Part shown: positions 5,531-38,354 of the stretch, piece by piece
How positions within the stretch are numbered: the stretch's first letter is position 1
Layout of the letters: each line of letters opens with the position of its first letter
Virus genome (UHGV): UHGV-1369056
Origin: a virus
Strand: one strand, 5' to 3'
Length of the DNA stretch: 39,253 nt
The notes under the pieces: model-generated
What the model was told of the DNA's origin: nothing
Databases searched by the model: none
Seen by the model: the letters and a program-made list of their open reading frames with translations, nothing else
Translations under genes and position numbers: made by a program

Positions 5531-5746
5531 ATGAATTTTGCACACAAGCAGGCTGGAGTTAAGGGCGGGACTCAAATCGTGACCGTAACAGAACACAACG
5601 GCAAGGGTCTGGTGAAGACCACTGTCATTCCTACCGAGATGTCAAAACAGCTTAACGTCCCATTCAAGACCCTCGTCTATCTTGTGGAATCCAGCCACGA
5701 GAAGTACCTGAAAGACGCAGTGTCCAAGCTGGAGCAGACCAAATGA
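5531..5746 (+). CDS. Hypothetical protein (71 aa), accessory gene between gene 1 and gene 1.1
   Basis: ORF with SD aaggagag upstream; unknown function. Confidence 0.5.
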   Translation: MNFAHKQAGVKGGTQIVTVTEHNGKGLVKTTVIPTEMSKQLNVPFKTLVYLVESSHEKYLKDAVSKLEQTK

Positions 5747-5820
5747 CACACCTACAGTTACTGGCCTTGTGGCTGGGAGCACTAGCAGTATTCACTTTAA
5801 TCCAACGCAGAAGAGGTTGA

Positions 5821-5914: not shown

Positions 5915-6094
5915 ATGTATCAGAACACTATCAACTTCGAGCGCATCCGTGAACGTCAGAAGACTGAAGGCTACATTCCGAAGGGCCGCAAGCTGAACAA
6001 GACAAAGCGTGGAGGCGGTGTCAAAGGTGCTTTCCGTAACGCTGAAGGCAAAGACTCTATGGTCAACCAAGAGAAATACTTCGTAGGAGCATAA
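5915..6094 (+). CDS. 1.1: gp1.1-like small basic protein (59 aa)
   Basis: Hand-read ORF; contains KGRKLNKTKR, matching the T7 gp1.1 motif (GRKLNKTKR) as recalled; SD ctggagc upstream. Confidence 0.65.
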   Translation: MYQNTINFERIRERQKTEGYIPKGRKLNKTKRGGGVKGAFRNAEGKDSMVNQEKYFVGA

Positions 6095-29179: not shown

Positions 29180-32100
29180 ATGGCGACTCGTGGTATTCGC
29201 AATAACAATCCGGGTAACATCCGGGTAAGTAAGGACCAATGGGAAGGAATGACTGGAGATGATGGCGCATTCGTCACCTTCGATAGTCCAGAGTCTGGCG
29301 TCCGAGCTTTAGGTAAAAACCTGCTGTCCTACGGTCGCCGAGGTTATGACTCCATCGAGAAGATTATCAACCGATGGGCACCTCCTAACGAGAACGACAC
29401 TAAGGCTTATATTGACTCAGTGGTGGCTGCAACTGGTATTCCAGCTACCCAGAGTCTCGACCTATCGGACCCTGACACCCTGTCTTCTCTGGCTCAAGCT
29501 ATCAGCTTCCATGAGACAGGCTCCCGGTACGACCCTGAAGTCTATCAGAAGGGAGTCGCACGAGCACTCAATGGCATTAGCCCAAAGACTCCACCAGTAA
29601 GCGCTAACGTATTTGACGCACTCACGGAAGGACTCAAGGCTAAACCTAAAGCAGCTCTGGGTGAGAACCTTCCGACCGCTGCTGGTCTGAATATTGAGGG
29701 TCAAGCACCTGAAGCTCCAAACGAATCGTTCGGTGAGATGTTCTATAAATCTACTGGCAAGACCATGCAGGAGCGAGAAGACCGCTCTACGTGGTTTGGT
29801 TTTGGTGCGGCTACAGAAGCTGAAGTGAAGAACTCTATGGTCGGCGTGGCTATCCGCGCTGGTCAGACTGAGGACTCACTGGATGTCATTGGCGATGTGT
29901 TCAACCCGACGCGATGGAACAACCATAAGTGGTCTCGTGAGGAGCTGGACCAGATTCGTAACGCTGGAGTTCTTCCTCAGTATTACGGGGTCATTACTGG
30001 TGGCTCACCTCAGAACCTGACCGAGCTTATTAACTTGGCGCTTGAGAACCAGAAGTTGGACCAAGAGAAGGCCAAGGCAGGGATTGGTGCTCAGTTAGCT
30101 GCTGGTGTGATTGGTGCTGGTGTAGACCCGCTGACCTACGTTCCTATAGCTGGACAGGTTGGTAAAGGTGGTAAGCTAGTAAACAAGATGTTCACCGTGG
30201 CTGCTCAATCTGGAGCACTGGCTGGTGTGTCCGAGATGGCCCGTACCTCAGTGGCTGGCGGTGATGCTCATGTGGCTGAGGCTATCCTTGGCGGTGCTCT
30301 CTTCGGTGGAGGTATGACTGCTATCGCTGATGGTTTAGGCAGAGCCTTAGGTCGTAACACTAACGAGTTCGCTGGTCCAGCCACACGTCTGGAAGCTCGT
30401 GAGACAGCCCGTAACGTTGATGGTCAGGACCTGTCTCGTCTACCTATTCAAGAAGGTGAGGAGACCTTTAGTCATCAAGGCGTTAAGTTAGCTGACGTTC
30501 CGAATGAGCCGGGTAGTGTACGACTTGAAGATGGTTCAATACTGATTGGTGAGAACCCTCTGAACCCTAAGACACGTAAGGTCTTTGACGAAGTGATTGA
30601 GCCTGAACGTGCAGCTGCTGGTGTGAACCTTGGTGGACTAACTGAGATTGGCCTGAAGCTGCTTCGGTCTGAGAACCCTGAGATTCGTGGAGTCGCTGCC
30701 GACTTAGTGCGTTCACCAACCGGTATGCAGTCAGGGGCCTCAGGTAAAATCGGGACCACTGCGTCAGACGTATTCGAGAGACTTCGTGCTGTGGACCATC
30801 GGTTCTACAACGACATCGACGACGCGGTTACTGAGGCGCTCAAGGACCCATACTTCCAGACAGCATTCTGGAGAGACTCTGGCGCATTCCGTCAGGACAT
30901 CTACCAGCGTGTGTCTATGGCTATTGAAGACGGAAGTGGGAACCTGAAGGCTGAACTGACTCCGGGAGAACTGAAAGTCTATGACCTGCTGAAGAACCAG
31001 TTTGACGCCAAGCGTGAGATGATGGAGAACCCGGCGATGTTTGGTCGTCCAGACGCTCAGTCTATCTTTCCGGGTAGCCGATTCAAGGGAACCTACGTCC
31101 CACATGTATATAGCAACCAGATGAAGGAGCTGTACATCAAGGAACTTGGAAGTCCAGAGGCACTACAGGAGGCCATCAAGAAGTCATGGTTGACCAGCTA
31201 TGCGTCTCGACCTGAGGTCAAGAAACGTGTGGACGAGGCACTCTTAGAGGCTGACCCTACGTTGACTCCAGAAGGACTTGCGGCTGCGGTAGATAAGTAC
31301 GCCAACGATAAGGCTTATGGTATCTCTCACACCGAGCAGTTCGAGCGTTCATCCGTAATGGAAGAGAACATCAATGGTCTGGTGGGTCTGGAGAACAACA
31401 GCTTCCTTGAGGCTCGTAACCTGTTCGACAGCGATATGTCAATAGTTCTTCCTAATGGTCAAACCTTCAGTGTCAACAACCTGCGTGAGTGGGACATGGA
31501 CAAGATTGTCCCGGCATACAACCGTCGAGTTAATGGTGACATTGCTATTATGGCTGGTACAGGCAAGACAACGAAAGAAATGAAGGACTTGGTTGAGACC
31601 ATGATGAACAAGGCTGGTGATGACGGAAAGTTGAAAGGTGAAGTATCTACCTTGCGTGACACACTTAAGATTCTAACTGGTCGTGCTCGACGTGATGGTG
31701 CTGACGATGCAGCCTTCGCTACCGTGATGCGCACAATGACAGACCTATCGTTCTTCGCTAAGAATGCCTATATGGGTGTTCAGAACTTAACGGAGATTGG
31801 TGGTATGCTGGCCCGTGGTAACGTTCGTGCAATGCTGCATGGAGTCCCAATTTTCCGTGACCTAGCCTTCCGTAACAAGAAGGTTGGGGCCTCAGAGATT
31901 AAGGACCTGCACAATGTTATCTTTGGTAAGGAACTTGATGACTCAATACGCCCATCTAAACAGGATGTCATTGACCGTCTGCGGTCTTACAGTGACCTCG
32001 GTCGTGGTACAGCTACAGCTCTGGGGACTGCCAAGTATTACACTGGTGAACTTGCAGTACGCTCTCCGTTCACTAAAGTTCTCAACGGTACGACCAACTA

Positions 32101-33067
32101 CCTGTTAGATGCTGGACGTCAAGGCTTCCTGTCTGACATCGTGGAGCATAGCCTGACTGGTAGTAAGCGTAAGTTCGATGACCGCTGGCTGAAGACCGCT
32201 GGTATATCTGACGAGCAGTGGAAGGGCATTAAGTCATTAATCCGTGAGTCAGTGACTCGTGGTCCAGACGGGAAGTACACCATCAAGGATAAGAGGGCGT
32301 TCAGTCAGGACCCAAGGGCTATGGACCTGTGGCGTATGGGTGACACCATCGCTGACGAAACGTTACTCCGGCCCCACAAGCTGTCAAACATGGATGCCAA
32401 GGCTTATGGTCCTCTCGCTAAGACTGTCCTTCAGTTTAAGAACTTCGTCATCAAGTCCATCAATGGACGTACCATGCGAACCTTCTATAACGCCACGAAG
32501 AACAACCGAGCGATGGATGCTGCTCTATCTACCGTGATGTCTATGGGTCTGGCTGGTATCTACTACATGGCTCAGGCTCACGTCAAGGCTTACGCTATGC
32601 AGGATGGCAGAGACCGTGAATACCTCAAGCAAGCTCTTGACCCGACGATGATTGGTTATGCGGCTCTGTCCCGTAGTTCACATCTGGGTGGTCCACTTGG
32701 GGTAGCTAACATTCTGGGTGGCATCGCTGGGTATGAGGACACTAAGATGCTCCGTTCGTCTATCCTACCTCGTTCGCCTACAGAGAAGCCTGAACGTGCC
32801 ATCGCGTATGGTGCGGCTACAAGTGACCCTGTTATGAATGTTGTTGGTAACTTCTTGGAGCAGGTTCCAGCTTTCGGATATGCTGCTAACGTTGGCGCTT
32901 CGGCTTACAACTTGGCTGGCTACCTCAAGGCTGATACTCGCGTCAACGAGCGTGACTACATGACCGGGATGTATAATACGTTCCGTGAACTGGTTCCGAA
33001 CGACCCAATTACCCAGAAGCTGTTACTTGGAACGTTTGAGGAGCAAGGCATCCACATCAAGGACTAA
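29180..33067 (+). CDS. 16: Internal virion protein D (gp16 homologue) with a divergent N-terminal domain
   Basis: 1295 aa; from ~residue 200 onward long blocks match T7 gp16 (STWFGFGAATEAE, ARETARN, LVRSPTGMQSGASGK, NPAMFG, GTYVPHVY, SRPEVK.RVDE, KAYGISH, NSFLEARNLFDSD, AYNRRVNGDIAIMA, ILTGRARR, GTTNYLLDA, DPRAMDLWR, ALSRSS, FMTGM, VPNDP). The N-terminal ~190 aa (MATRGIRNNNPGNIR...) do not match the T7 transglycosylase domain. Confidence 0.93.
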   Translation: MATRGIRNNNPGNIRVSKDQWEGMTGDDGAFVTFDSPESGVRALGKNLLSYGRRGYDSIEKIINRWAPPNENDTKAYIDSVVAATGIPATQSLDLSDPDTLSSLAQAISFHETGSRYDPEVYQKGVARALNGISPKTPPVSANVFDALTEGLKAKPKAALGENLPTAAGLNIEGQAPEAPNESFGEMFYKSTGKTMQEREDRSTWFGFGAATEAEVKNSMVGVAIRAGQTEDSLDVIGDVFNPTRWNNHKWSREELDQIRNAGVLPQYYGVITGGSPQNLTELINLALENQKLDQEKAKAGIGAQLAAGVIGAGVDPLTYVPIAGQVGKGGKLVNKMFTVAAQSGALAGVSEMARTSVAGGDAHVAEAILGGALFGGGMTAIADGLGRALGRNTNEFAGPATRLEARETARNVDGQDLSRLPIQEGEETFSHQGVKLADVPNEPGSVRLEDGSILIGENPLNPKTRKVFDEVIEPERAAAGVNLGGLTEIGLKLLRSENPEIRGVAADLVRSPTGMQSGASGKIGTTASDVFERLRAVDHRFYNDIDDAVTEALKDPYFQTAFWRDSGAFRQDIYQRVSMAIEDGSGNLKAELTPGELKVYDLLKNQFDAKREMMENPAMFGRPDAQSIFPGSRFKGTYVPHVYSNQMKELYIKELGSPEALQEAIKKSWLTSYASRPEVKKRVDEALLEADPTLTPEGLAAAVDKYANDKAYGISHTEQFERSSVMEENINGLVGLENNSFLEARNLFDSDMSIVLPNGQTFSVNNLREWDMDKIVPAYNRRVNGDIAIMAGTGKTTKEMKDLVETMMNKAGDDGKLKGEVSTLRDTLKILTGRARRDGADDAAFATVMRTMTDLSFFAKNAYMGVQNLTEIGGMLARGNVRAMLHGVPIFRDLAFRNKKVGASEIKDLHNVIFGKELDDSIRPSKQDVIDRLRSYSDLGRGTATALGTAKYYTGELAVRSPFTKVLNGTTNYLLDAGRQGFLSDIVEHSLTGSKRKFDDRWLKTAGISDEQWKGIKSLIRESVTRGPDGKYTIKDKRAFSQDPRAMDLWRMGDTIADETLLRPHKLSNMDAKAYGPLAKTVLQFKNFVIKSINGRTMRTFYNATKNNRAMDAALSTVMSMGLAGIYYMAQAHVKAYAMQDGRDREYLKQALDPTMIGYAALSRSSHLGGPLGVANILGGIAGYEDTKMLRSSILPRSPTEKPERAIAYGAATSDPVMNVVGNFLEQVPAFGYAANVGASAYNLAGYLKADTRVNERDYMTGMYNTFRELVPNDPITQKLLLGTFEEQGIHIKD

Positions 33068-33131: not shown

Positions 33132-35132
33132 ATGTCCACGATTACACAATTCCCTTCAGGAAACACTCGGTACAGGATTGAGTTCGACTACCTAGCCAGA
33201 ACGTTTGTTGTTGTTACGCTGGTGAATAGCTCTAACCCTGCCCTGAACCGTGTACTAGAAGTTGGTCGAGATTACCGATTCCTTAATCCAACGATGATTG
33301 AGATGTTGGCTGACCAATCAGGTTTCGACGTCGTTCGTATTCACCGTCAGACTGGAACTGACTTAGTGGTAGACTTCAGGAATGGCTCAGTGTTGACAGC
33401 TAGTGACCTGACCAATTCGGAGCTTCAGGCTATCCATATTGCAGAAGAAGGGCGAGACCAAACTGTTGACTTAGCGAAGGAATATGCCGATGCTGCTGGT
33501 AACTCTGCTGGCAGCGCTAAGGATAGCGAGGACGAAGCACGACGAATAGTTTCGAGTATCAGGGAGGCTGGTCTAATTGGCTATATTACCCGTAGCTCCT
33601 TCGAGAAAGGCTTCACCGTTACACTATGGAACGAGGTCCTGCTAAGGGAAGAGGATGGTTATTATTACCGCTGGGATGGTGCTCTCCCAAAAACAGTGCC
33701 TGCAGGTTCAACCCCTGATTCCAATTGGACTAACGTAGGTAAGCTGAATGGGCTTGATGAGCACTCACCTGAGAACTTTGGGGCAATCCCGAACGACCCC
33801 AGCTTTGACTGTCTACCTGCTATAAAATTGGCCATAGCTACAGGCACATTAAACCTTGATGGCAAGGCTACCTACCACGTAACAGATGAGGTTGTTATCC
33901 CCTCTTACCTACGTGGGAATCTAAATGGGGCAACAATTAAAGCAATTGGTCCAACATGGCCTGCATTAAAATCTGTTGTTCGTGTTAGTAAATTTCCTAT
34001 TGGAACCAAAACCGTTGATGTAGCTAATACTGAGAACCAAGTACGAGGGCTACGTTTGATTGGCAGTCTTAACATAGACTGTGCAGACATTGCATCGTAT
34101 GGTTTTTACGCACGACTAATGTGTGCAGAATCCGAGATGGGTAGTATCTATGCATATAATGCTAATAGATATGGCATTGTAATGTTTGCTTGCTGGTATT
34201 TTCAAATGGGTACTCTCCATGCAAACAACTGTGCAAGGGGCGTGGCATTAGGTTATTCAACGGAAGGTGAGCAAGGGGATACCTATGTAAATGCTACACA
34301 CTTCCCTCACATTAGTGCATGGGGTACAGATAAGTCTACTGGACTAGGTTATGACCCAATCACAGATGATGCGAGTAAATATACGATAGGTGCTGGTATT
34401 ATCTTAGGTCGTGGTTTATCTACTAGTGTTGGTGTGATTTGCTCTGAGAATACATCTGGTGCTGGTGTGGTAACAATGGACCCTGCTGCGTGGGACATTG
34501 GGGTTATGTACTGCGAGGGCAACAGTAAAGACTTCACTCAGGTGGGTGAGCCGAAGGTATCATTATTGTCGTCTAAGGCTAACAGCGAGAGTCATACACT
34601 TACCATCTCTACACTTCACCTATCTGCTGGTTGTGGTATCTTAACCAGAAGTAATCAAGAGCGTGTGCTAATCAGAAGTCTTTATCGTTTTGATAATTCA
34701 AGAACCTTCCACTCCTATTGCACAGCAGACACAGTAGAGGTTGGTAGCAGCAACTACTATGTACTTAACGGGCATAATTACAACGCACCTGCTGCACTTA
34801 TTAAGGAACCCCTTAATGTAGATTTTGTGCGCTCAGGGCTGACTTTGAGTGAGTGGACAACTACCGTTATCGGTCATTTCGCCGGTAGTACAGCAGAACA
34901 GCAGCTTTATGTTAAGTTGCCAGCAAGTCCCAGTGGTCTGGACCTACAGATAGCTAGTGAGGAGGGGACAGAATATATCACTGTAACCGGTACAGATTTT
35001 AAAGCATCTCTAACTAAGAAAAGACTACCCAGTAAATTATATGAGATAAGGATTGGTGGGGTATCTACAGTACCCGTTGCCGATTGCTCTGTTCTAATTA
35101 GAAGTAGGAAAGGTGATTGGTACTACTGGTAA
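33132..35132 (+). CDS. 17: Tail fibre / tailspike protein (gp17 homologue): conserved N-terminal adaptor domain plus divergent C-terminal domain
   Basis: The N-terminal ~150 aa (FDYLAR.FVVVTL...DYRF...DF.NGSVL.A.DL...[12 protein letters not shown]) match the T7 gp17 N-terminus. The remainder is unrelated to T7, AT-richer, with Gly/Asn-rich repetitive segments that suggest a beta-helix. Confidence 0.9.
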
Positions 35133-35174
35133 CAACTTTGGGTCAAGGACGACCCGCTTTAAACTGGAGGTTTT

Positions 35175-35369
35175 ATGATTGAGTTAGACTTCAAGAATGA
35201 GGTCCTTAAAGCCTCTCCTATCGTTGGGACCGCTGCGGCTGATGGTGCCAGTCGGTTCTTCTTCGGACTTACACTGAACGAATGGTTCTACGTTGCAGCT
35301 ATCGCGTACACCGTTGTCCAGATTGGTGTGCTAGTCTACAAAACGATTAAAGGAGGTGGTAAAACATGA
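35175..35369 (+). CDS. 17.5: Holin (gp17.5 homologue)
   Basis: 64 aa; KASPIVGTAAADGASRFFFGLTLNEWFYVAAIAYTVVQIG is near-identical to T7 gp17.5. Confidence 0.88.
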   Translation: MIELDFKNEVLKASPIVGTAAADGASRFFFGLTLNEWFYVAAIAYTVVQIGVLVYKTIKGGGKT

Positions 35370-35730: not shown

Positions 35731-36168
35731 ATGCTCGAATTTTTAAAGAGAGCGGCTCCGTGGTTACTTGCAGCAGTGATGTTTGCTGGTGGCTACCACA
35801 CCGCTAACAATAAGTGGGAGGCTAAGGTCAATGCAGAATACACCTCGAATCTTAAGGCATCGGAAGATACAAGGCTTGCTGTCCAAGCTGAAGTCAACAA
35901 AGTGTCCAAACGGTTTCAGGACGAAATGTCCTCGTTGGAAGGCAGCACTGATAGGATTATTGCTGACCTTAAGTCTGACAATAAGCGGCTGCGCGTCAAG
36001 GTCAACACCTCAGGTCTCACCGAGTCAGATGTCAGTCGATGCTTCCCTAATGGTAGAGTCGAACTACACCCAGAAACTTCTAAAAGTCTTATCCGAATAA
36101 CTCAGGAGGCAGACCTTAAGGAGAAGGCGCTTCAGGACACAATAAGGAGGCTCCAAGGTGTTAAGTGA
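35731..36168 (+). CDS. 18.5: i-spanin (Rz-like, gp18.5 homologue)
   Basis: 145 aa, N-terminal transmembrane segment (WLLAAVMFAGGY), coiled-coil-like remainder; position after gene 18. Confidence 0.8.
   Translation: MLEFLKRAAPWLLAAVMFAGGYHTANNKWEAKVNAEYTSNLKASEDTRLAVQAEVNKVSKRFQDEMSSLEGSTDRIIADLKSDNKRLRVKVNTSGLTESDVSRCFPNGRVELHPETSKSLIRITQEADLKEKALQDTIRRLQGVK
35831..36100 (+). CDS. 18.7: o-spanin (Rz1-like lipoprotein, gp18.7 analogue) embedded in the +1 frame of gene 18.5
   Basis: Embedded ORF contains a signal-like KAALIGLLLTLSLTISG followed by Cys (lipobox-like ISGC; Cys codon at 35990-35992) and a Pro/Ser-rich mature part. Start uncertain (ATG 35831 or 35783). Confidence 0.5.
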   Translation: MQNTPRILRHRKIQGLLSKLKSTKCPNGFRTKCPRWKAALIGLLLTLSLTISGCASRSTPQVSPSQMSVDASLMVESNYTQKLLKVLSE

Positions 36169-36595
36169 TTACTACAAAGTGGACCAGGCGAGTCCATCCG
36201 GTCTGGTCTCCGTTAGGACTGGAAAGCCTGTGGGGACATTAAGTCGGATGGGATATTGGATAGTACAGACACGAAGTCTAGGCAGTAAGCGGGCACATCG
36301 CGTGATATGGGAACTAACCAATGGTCCTATACCACATGGTATGCAAATAGATCACATCGACAGGAACCCCAGCAATAATACCTTAAGTAACTTACGGCTC
36401 GTTACTGCCGCTGAGAACACTTGGAATACGGGTAGCCATTATGACTCTAAGACGGGAGTGAAGTGCGTTACCCGTCACCAGAATGGTTATAGGATTCAGG
36501 TTAAACGCGGGAATGTCTATATGCGAACAACACGTCCTACTTTAGAGGAGGCTATCTCTGTCCGGGACCTAATGCTGGAGGGACTCTATGTCTAA
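36158..36595 (+). CDS. HNH homing endonuclease
   Basis: HNH motif [26 protein letters not shown]; GTG start at 36158 with strong SD aaggagg 7 nt upstream, overlapping the 18.5 stop; codon usage atypical (ata, agg, aga); inserted between 18.5 and 19. Confidence 0.8.
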
Positions 36596-38354
36596 GAAAA
36601 CACCTGTTGAAAGACAGGCAGAAATGACCCGAAGGATGAGGGACGACTTCGTATTCTTCATCTTCGTTCTCTGGAAAGCTCTTAGCCTTCCGGTTCCAAC
36701 ACGCTGCCAGATAGATATGTGTAAGAAGCTGGCTGCTGGGGATAATCGCCGCTTCATCCTTCAGGCTTTCCGTGGTATCGGCAAGTCGTTTCTGACCTGT
36801 GGTTTCGTGGTCTGGAAGTTATGGAACAACCCAGACTTGAAGTTCATGATTGTGTCGGCCTCAAAGGAACGAGCCGATGCGAACTCCATCTTCATCAAGC
36901 GAATCATCGACCTCATGCCTCAGCTTCAGGAACTCAAACCTAAGCAGGGACAGCGAGATGCGGTTATTAGCTTCGACGTTGGGCCAGCCAAGCCAGACCA
37001 CTCACCTTCGGTTAAGTCTGTTGGTATCACTGGTCAGTTGACTGGTAGTCGTGCTGACATCCTGATTGCCGATGACGTGGAGGTTCCGAACAACTCAGCG
37101 ACTCAGGCTGCCAGAGACCGTCTGTCAGAGCTTGTGAAAGAGTTCGACGCTATCCTGAAGCCGGGAGGTACAATCATCTATCTGGGTACTCCTCAGAACG
37201 AGATGACCTTGTATCGTGAGCTGGAAGGCCGTGGATACACCACTACTATCTGGCCTGCTCGTTATCCACGTGATAAGAAGGACTGGCAGTCTTACGGCGA
37301 CCGTCTGGCACCGATGCTTCAGGCAGAGCTGGAAGAGGACCCTGAGTCCTTCTACTGGCGTCCTACCGATGAAGTACGATTCGATGATACGGACCTGAAG
37401 GAACGTGAGCTGTCTTATGGTAAAGCTGGCTTCGCTCTACAGTTCATGCTTAACCCTAACCTGAGTGATGCCGAGAAGTACCCTCTGAAGCTCCGTGACC
37501 TTATCGTAGCAGACTTGGACCCAGCGTCTAGCCCAATGGTCTACCAATGGCTTCCTAACCCTCAGAACAAGCGTGAGGACGTTCCTAACGTTGGACTCAT
37601 GGGTGACTCATACCACACGTATCAGACTGTAGGTTCTGCCTTCAGCTCGTACACCCAGAAGATTCTGGTCATTGACCCTAGTGGTCGTGGTAAGGATGAA
37701 ACTGGATATGCGGTACTATACCAGCTCAACGGCTACATCTTCGCTATGGAAGTTGGTGGTATGCGTGGAGGTTATGAAGACTCTACTCTGGAAGCTCTGG
37801 CTAAGATTGGTCGTAAGTGGAAGGTCAACGAATACGTCATTGAGGGTAACTTCGGTGATGGTATGTACCTTGAGTTATTCAAGCCTGTAGCGGCCCGTAT
37901 CCATCCTGCGGCTGTAACTGAAGTGAAGAGTAAGGGTCAGAAGGAACTCCGCATCTGTGACGTTCTGGAGCCTATCATGGGGTCTCACAGACTTATCGTT
38001 AACGCTGCTGCTATCGTCCAAGACTACCAGTCAGCCTCTGATAAGGATGGTGTTCGTAACCCTATCTACTCTCTCTTCTACCAGATGACCCGTATCTCTC
38101 GTGAACGTGGAGCCTTGGCACACGATGACCGACTTGATGCGCTGGCTATCGGTGTACAGTTCTTCGTTGAGTCTATGGCTAAGGATGCCAACAAAGGCGA
38201 ACGTGAAGTCACTGAGGAGTGGCTGGAGGAACAGATGGAGAACCCACGGAAAGGCTTCGAGTCCATCCACACTGAGTTCTGGGACAATGGGGTCCGAGTA
38301 ACTCACGATACGGACGACGAGCTGGGACTAGGGGCCTACGTTACGTTTCACTAG
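36588..38354 (+). CDS. 19: Terminase large subunit (gp19 homologue)
   Basis: 588-aa ORF in the gene 19 position (T7 gp19 is 586 aa); Walker A-like QAFRGIGKS and Walker B-like ILIADDVE. Confidence 0.97.

Follow-up and report, generated by a model that had tools for sequence, protein, structure and literature searches.

Exchange of a predicted beta-helix receptor-binding cassette at a short conserved junction in the tailspike gene of a Kayfunavirus-type phage

Swapping of receptor-binding modules is a well-documented route by which phages change host. In Kayfunavirus, Gamaleyavirus and Lederbergvirus, pectin-lyase-like tailspikes with variable anchors have O-antigens or capsules as their targets (PMC10408124; PMC11990801), and conserved junction motifs such as 'motif one' have been proposed as possible recombination hot-spots (PMC10408124). 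The modular receptor-binding proteins of Kayfunavirus phages, i.e. the K1F endosialidase and those of CLB_P1, ST31, YZ1, ElsieAttenhofer (Bas105) and E1004 (9vvr), occupy the same genome position and have the same anchor as the tailspike analysed here. However, the modules of ST31, E1004 and K1F past residue 198 are unrelated in sequence to the cassette described below, and K1F has a Peptidase_S74 chaperone domain, which the present tailspike lacks. By contrast, the second tailspike of Gamaleyavirus-like (G7C/N4-like) 72-kb phages (protein P0035 on contig L004) has a module that is collinear with the present one from residue 199 to the stop codon and of the same GC content, while its anchor is different (PF18668-only, in a protein of 692 aa), the virion is unrelated and the genome encodes two tailspikes. 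The architecture of a PF18668 N-terminal domain followed by a beta-helix is also common to TSP1-4 of CBA120 (Kuttervirus) and to the Phapecoctavirus spikes UP17/TSP7_1. The modules of UP17 and TSP7_1 are 41% identical to the present cassette, whereas the catalytic domains of CBA120, at 9-16% identity, are detectable by structure alone; unlike the present tailspike, spikes of the CBA120/UP17 type belong to myoviruses and are assembled into branched complexes of several spikes. Compared with the pectate-lyase-like (PF12708) enzymes, which include phi29 gp12, GH55 glucanases, the AlgE4 epimerase and Acinetobacter and Klebsiella capsule depolymerases, the cassette protein falls below the Pfam threshold; their chemistry varies (hydrolase, lyase or epimerase), and their catalytic residues cannot be matched to residues of the cassette.

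The stretch of DNA that we analysed (referred to as the window; 39,253 nucleotides of UHGV virus genome UHGV-1369056) amounts to an entire T7-like genome (~39.25 kb). It is syntenic with the Kayfunavirus ST31, and the 3.5 kb surrounding the tailspike gene are 98.9% identical to Escherichia phage TM1. The tailspike gene (Table 1) lies between the gene for a gp16 homologue (internal virion protein D; 29180-33067) and that for a type II holin (35175-35369), i.e. in the gp17 slot of a T7-like genome. On its 3' side, Pfam identifies type II holin, small terminase and Rz genes, and the gene order is as in ST31. The region 33700-35132, to which the original prediction referred, encodes residues 190-666. 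Two further ORFs are present downstream. A 145-aa HNH_3 endonuclease ORF (36158-36595, + strand; PF13392, E 6.7e-21) lies between the Rz and large terminase genes and overlaps both; it is covered in only 14 of the 357 phage records that match 35900-36900, for instance by gp3.8A of Citrobacter phage CR44b, and has the appearance of a homing endonuclease with a sporadic distribution. A 105-aa ORF (35783-36100, + strand) is embedded in another frame inside the Rz-like gene (35731-36168), which is the position expected of an Rz1-type outer-membrane spanin, and its product contains a lipobox-like stretch (...LSLTISGC...).

Table 1. Coordinates of the tailspike gene, its domains and its junctions in the window.
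Feature	Coordinates	Strand	Description
Tail fibre/tailspike gene (gp17 position)	33132..35132	+	666 aa; from the ORF list
T7 gp17-type N-terminal adaptor	33159..33473	+	aa 10-114; docks the protein on the tail; PF03906
Predicted helical neck, Ala/Asp/Glu-rich	33414..33566	+	aa 95-145; weak assignment
Tail_spike_N (PF18668, TSP1/gp66-type) small beta domain	33591..33722	+	aa 154-197; last domain of the conserved anchor
Crossover microhomology GGTTCAACCCCTGATTCC (G-S-T-P-D-S)	33704..33721	+	18 nt; five-way DNA alignment and BLAST end points 33721 (ST31) and 33726 (L004)
Exchanged receptor-binding cassette	33726..35129	+	aa 199-666; 43.8% GC, GC3 35%
Right-handed parallel beta-helix (modelled)	33759..34691	+	~aa 210-520; N-terminal cap motif aa 216-235
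C-terminal all-beta domain (modelled)	34809..35111	+	~aa 560-660; closer subfamily only; strands E563-657, pLDDT 73-93
3' junction and conserved intergenic spacer	35127..35174	+	Kayfunavirus homology resumes, ST31 98.2%; contains the holin ribosome-binding site

The anchor consists of an adaptor of the gp17 type, a predicted helical neck and a PF18668 domain; T7 likeness is confined to its first ~115 residues. Both anchor domains score above their Pfam cutoffs; PF03906 (Phage_T7_tail) matches with an E-value of 1.5e-16 and a score of 60.9 bits (cutoff 25.2), and PF18668 with an E-value of 2.7e-13 over a segment modelled with pLDDT 85-90. In a PDB sequence search, the chains of T7 gp17 (7boz/8dsp; 7boz_a has 553 aa) align to residues 6-115 only. 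From this limit and that of PF03906, the T7-like part is ~115 residues long. The original prediction, made from the sequence alone, was therefore right about the gp17-like N-terminus and about a downstream part unrelated to T7, there being no gp17 match past residue 115, but it had put the length of the match too high at ~150 residues. In the neck, DSSP assigns helices at residues 95-105, 107-124 and 129-145 of the AlphaFold2 model, where pLDDT is below 50. The PF18668 domain has matches in the PDB to CBA120 TSP1/3/4 and to gp13 in 9occ. Chain 9vvr_A, the cryo-EM structure of the phage E1004 tail spike, aligns closely with residues 1-198 (E 6.1e-114) and diverges thereafter; in Foldseek, its identity is 97% across a 120-column stretch. 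Because of the limits of the Pfam, T7 gp17 and 9vvr alignments, we assign residues 1-198 to the conserved anchor. Thus, the junction lies at residues 198/199 (33722-33726), after the second anchor domain, and not at residue ~150 or 190 as had been suggested.

A comparison of this gene with those of other phages gives direct evidence that the receptor-binding module was exchanged horizontally. Homology to ST31 runs at 94.4% identity until 33721 and is back at 35127 with 98.2% (BLAST). Between these break points, the Gamaleyavirus-like contig L004 matches exactly 33726-35132 in a gapless alignment with 85.9% DNA and 91.5% protein identity. The L004-type tailspike is found on 72-kb contigs; at 95% identity, the flanks on these contigs match E20 and F22, two N4-like Escherichia phages. 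Most of the differences in the L004 copy (151 of 199) are at codon position 3, and the module is, therefore, under purifying selection. Since the two are 86% identical in DNA, the cassette was not acquired directly from the Gamaleyavirus copy. While the flanks match 688 phage records, cassette DNA is present in only two of them (TM1 and EFA-1). With these two records, the ST31 break points, the copy in an unrelated phage and the variety of anchors described below, the exchange that had been proposed from the sequence is borne out.

In a five-way DNA alignment, the sequence to the left of GGTTCAACCCCTGATTCC is Kayfunavirus-like and that to the right is like the foreign module. The 67 nt at 33655-33721 are present in 186 phage records from several genera, and nearly all among the matches listed end at 33715-33721. 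Carriers of this junction motif, which corresponds to 'motif one' of PMC10408124, include K1F as well as non-T7-like phages of 44-47 kb and 149 kb. At the other end of the cassette, the intergenic spacer contains the inverted repeat GGGTC-aaggac-GACCC (35140-35155); a terminator scan did not call this hairpin. The crossover points are not the same in all relatives. EFA-2, which belongs to another Studiervirinae lineage and has a 768-aa fibre, shares 33481-35328 at 91.7% identity while its flanks are only 68-81% identical, and other crossover points were therefore used in that exchange. In UP17 (Phapecoctavirus), the DNA match is confined to an 80-nt island at 33705-33784 (85%). The junction region of the window matches the UP17 tailspike gene twice, at positions 5701-5750 (end of PF18668) and 5977-6056 (start of the module) of locus L003. 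These two matches are ~275 nt apart, so that the UP17 protein carries an insertion of ~70 aa at this point.

The module is rare. By tblastn it is found in nine phage records only, and among 1.84 billion representatives its family accounts for no more than 35 clusters (50% identity). The module of Escherichia phage TM1, deposited in GenBank, is 99.6% identical. Chromosomal copies of the module are found in Proteus, Providencia, Xenorhabdus, Salmonella and E. coli, and no copy was found at the DNA level in 5,426 complete E. coli genomes; an attempt to read the host serotype from prophages was dropped on this account. The anchors to which the module is attached are of the T7-tail, PF18668-only, P22 head-binding, tail-collar fibre and BppU types. 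The same receptor-binding domain is thus shared across unrelated phages, and the comparison with their tailspikes suggested in the original prediction returned copies in Gamaleyavirus-like and Phapecoctavirus phages and in a P22-like prophage. A literature search on the nearest isolates, TM1 and EFA-1, gave nothing useful, and both are absent from the supplements of PMC10408124. EFA-1 and EFA-2, the nearest relatives (GenBank MT350292 / MT350293; locus L002), are labelled 'Enterococcus phage' with E. faecalis as host. Both are T7-like Studiervirinae with enterobacterial-type tailspikes, EFA-1 is marked UNVERIFIED_ORG in one source, and the E. faecalis label is probably wrong.

An AlphaFold2 monomer model built on a 31-sequence alignment predicts that the central domain of the cassette is a right-handed parallel beta-helix. 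In this model, pLDDT is above 90 for most of residues 150-490, ~80-87 for residues 490-540 and 73-93 for residues 560-660, while the presumably trimeric N-terminus is poorly modelled. Foldseek matches the model with probability 1.0 to K2-2 TSP, Depo32, Sf6 and the CBA120 TSPs, and tailspikes are returned from both the PDB and BFVD. The model and these searches, which return tailspike depolymerases, agree with the beta-helix of depolymerase tailspikes that had been predicted. Searches by sequence returned little for the module. Pfam has no match past residue 198 in the full protein and, at E <= 10, gives no family, including beta-helix or lyase families, for the C-terminal part alone; queries of the PDB with the protein sequence or a close-family profile hit the anchor only and return no solved structure for the module; and PHROGs has a single weak match to it (9e-5). 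A wider-family profile matches the cap motif of phi29 gp12 (7.6e-11) and those of GH55 glucanases through the N-terminal cap motif of the helix (Table 1). PF12708 is matched by 7 of the 31 distant family members, while the tailspike protein itself is without a Pfam match there. Distant relatives of the cassette align to residues ~260-500 only. The C-terminal all-beta domain probably serves in trimer stabilisation or distal binding.

Based on the data reported here, we consider it likely that the protein is the single receptor-binding tailspike of a Kayfunavirus-type coliphage, in which the anchor of the lineage is joined to an acquired, polysaccharide-active beta-helix cassette. In this model, the lineage-specific residues 1-198 would attach the protein, presumably a trimer, to the tail. 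The cassette would have been gained by homologous recombination within a short cross-genus DNA motif encoding ...PAGSTPDS, with the second crossover at the stop codon and intergenic spacer; it is in this direction that we infer the transfer to have taken place. Most likely, the cassette binds a polysaccharide on the host surface and cleaves or modifies it via carboxylates in the helix groove, presumably as a hydrolase, lyase or epimerase, and this action would give the short tail access to the outer membrane. The modelled fold and the relatives of the cassette point to an enzymatic activity directed at capsule or O-antigen. By analogy with the Kayfunavirus, Gamaleyavirus and P22-like relatives (PMC11990801; PMC10408124), the target is most likely an O-antigen, and that of an E. 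coli-like enterobacterium would be more likely than a capsule.

The conservation of individual residues bears on this activity. Across the wider family, D226, S334, W355, G422 and G443 do not vary, and conservation is 90% or more at E253, R284, D316, Y326, E333, N387, Y460 and E462; among the closer relatives, E380 and E439 are likewise invariant. D226, E253, D316, E333, E380, E439 and E462 are, accordingly, candidates for the catalytic carboxylates. An AlgE4-like active site, for which G-Y-D-P (residues 406-409) was compared with the epimerase DPH motif, was dropped because the His is absent. Fold matches of equal Z include hydrolases, lyases and epimerases as well as the non-enzymatic adhesin PfbA. 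One alternative, which we regard as unlikely, is that the cassette represents a small beta-helix family with a chemistry or target different from those of the known tailspike depolymerases, e.g. an epimerase- or lyase-like enzyme acting on a type of O-antigen or capsule for which no phage enzyme is known; the module is found with at least five anchor types and in Escherichia, Salmonella, Proteus, Providencia and Xenorhabdus. It is also conceivable, if quite unlikely, that the module is purely adhesive and non-catalytic and only keeps the phage attached to a receptor, either glycan or protein. However, the acidic residues of the wider family listed above are strictly kept down to 17-24% identity, most of the structural neighbours are enzymes, and the characterised Kayfunavirus, Gamaleyavirus and P22-like tailspikes of the same architecture are enzymatic (PMC11990801). 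We, therefore, favor a polysaccharide-active cassette.

This cassette also differs from the remaining genome in base composition. The GC content is 49.9% for the whole window, 43.9% for 33700-35132 and 41.9% for 33900-34400; the lowest-GC stretch of 1433 nt in the genome is 33791-35223 with 43.5% (sliding window), and the dip has a z of -4.2 when all windows without overlap with the tailspike gene are taken as the reference. The AT-rich shift of the original prediction is thus confirmed by calculation. The same prediction described the residues as Gly/Asn/Ser-rich and repetitive. This description applies only weakly. The cassette has 9.6% Gly, 9.0% Ser and 5.3% Asn versus 7.1%, 8.6% and 5.1% in the anchor, which does not support a richness in Asn, and neither tandem repeats in the DNA nor internal repeats in the protein (self-BLASTP) were found, so that any repetition would be structural only, in the form of beta-helix coils. 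GC3 is 35.4% for residues 199-666, 45.5% for the anchor and 54 +/- 5% for genes, the tailspike gene having the lowest GC3 of all genes; in other words, the GC drop lies mainly at synonymous sites.

The unrelated module of ST31 in the same slot (L001 1424-3299) is equally AT-rich with 44.0% GC and a GC3 of 33.7%. Therefore, the dip marks the receptor-binding slot generally and not the present cassette alone, and modules in this Kayfunavirus slot may generally be low in GC. This similarity would also be compatible with the module being ancestral to the lineage and its AT-richness reflecting an amino-acid or codon constraint of beta-helix proteins or a tuning of expression. We consider this very improbable. 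Exchange is evident without recourse to composition, from the restriction of cassette DNA to two of the 688 related records, the sharp break points and the 86-92% DNA identity of the module in phages whose other genes share only 68% identity or are unrelated; moreover, the drop is mostly synonymous. As a sole explanation it is refuted by the break-point data. With regard to an acquired cassette, the Gamaleyavirus-like contig L004 has 43.6% GC throughout and 43.5% in its module copy; the base composition of the cassette is, thus, at home in that contig and foreign in the window. The match in GC between the cassette and an N4-like Gamaleyavirus with a 91.5% identical copy suggests that the cassette came from a pool of modules moving among more AT-rich phages. 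As an argument for a donor, GC is weak because the unrelated ST31 module has the same low value.

Although the adaptor is of the T7 gp17 type and close copies are annotated as 'tail fiber protein' in their records, a diverged canonical T7-type fibre with a coiled-coil shaft and a small tip that binds the LPS core is hardly credible, since gp17 homology is confined to the adaptor region, the model has a long beta-helix in place of a shaft and tip, and structural searches lead to tailspikes and enzymes acting on glycans; the modelled fold and the lack of gp17 homology past the adaptor rule out a canonical T7 fibre tip. An endosialidase of the K1F type was likewise ruled out, there being no Pfam match to a sialidase beta-propeller or to Peptidase_S74, and K1F shares only the DNA motif at the anchor's end.

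The architecture of this tailspike, the junction motifs and the sharing of modules across families have already been published, including for Kayfunavirus, and a near-identical gene is present in GenBank (TM1). What is new is limited to the rare beta-helix module family and the precisely mapped junction, and the swapped tailspike module does not challenge current understanding. Rather, it provides a clean and exactly mapped case of the way in which T7-like phages alter their host range, a whole cassette having been swapped at an 18-nt conserved junction. Such conserved junctions are practical splice points to engineer the specificity of phages or tailocins, and the module itself is a candidate glycan-degrading enzyme.
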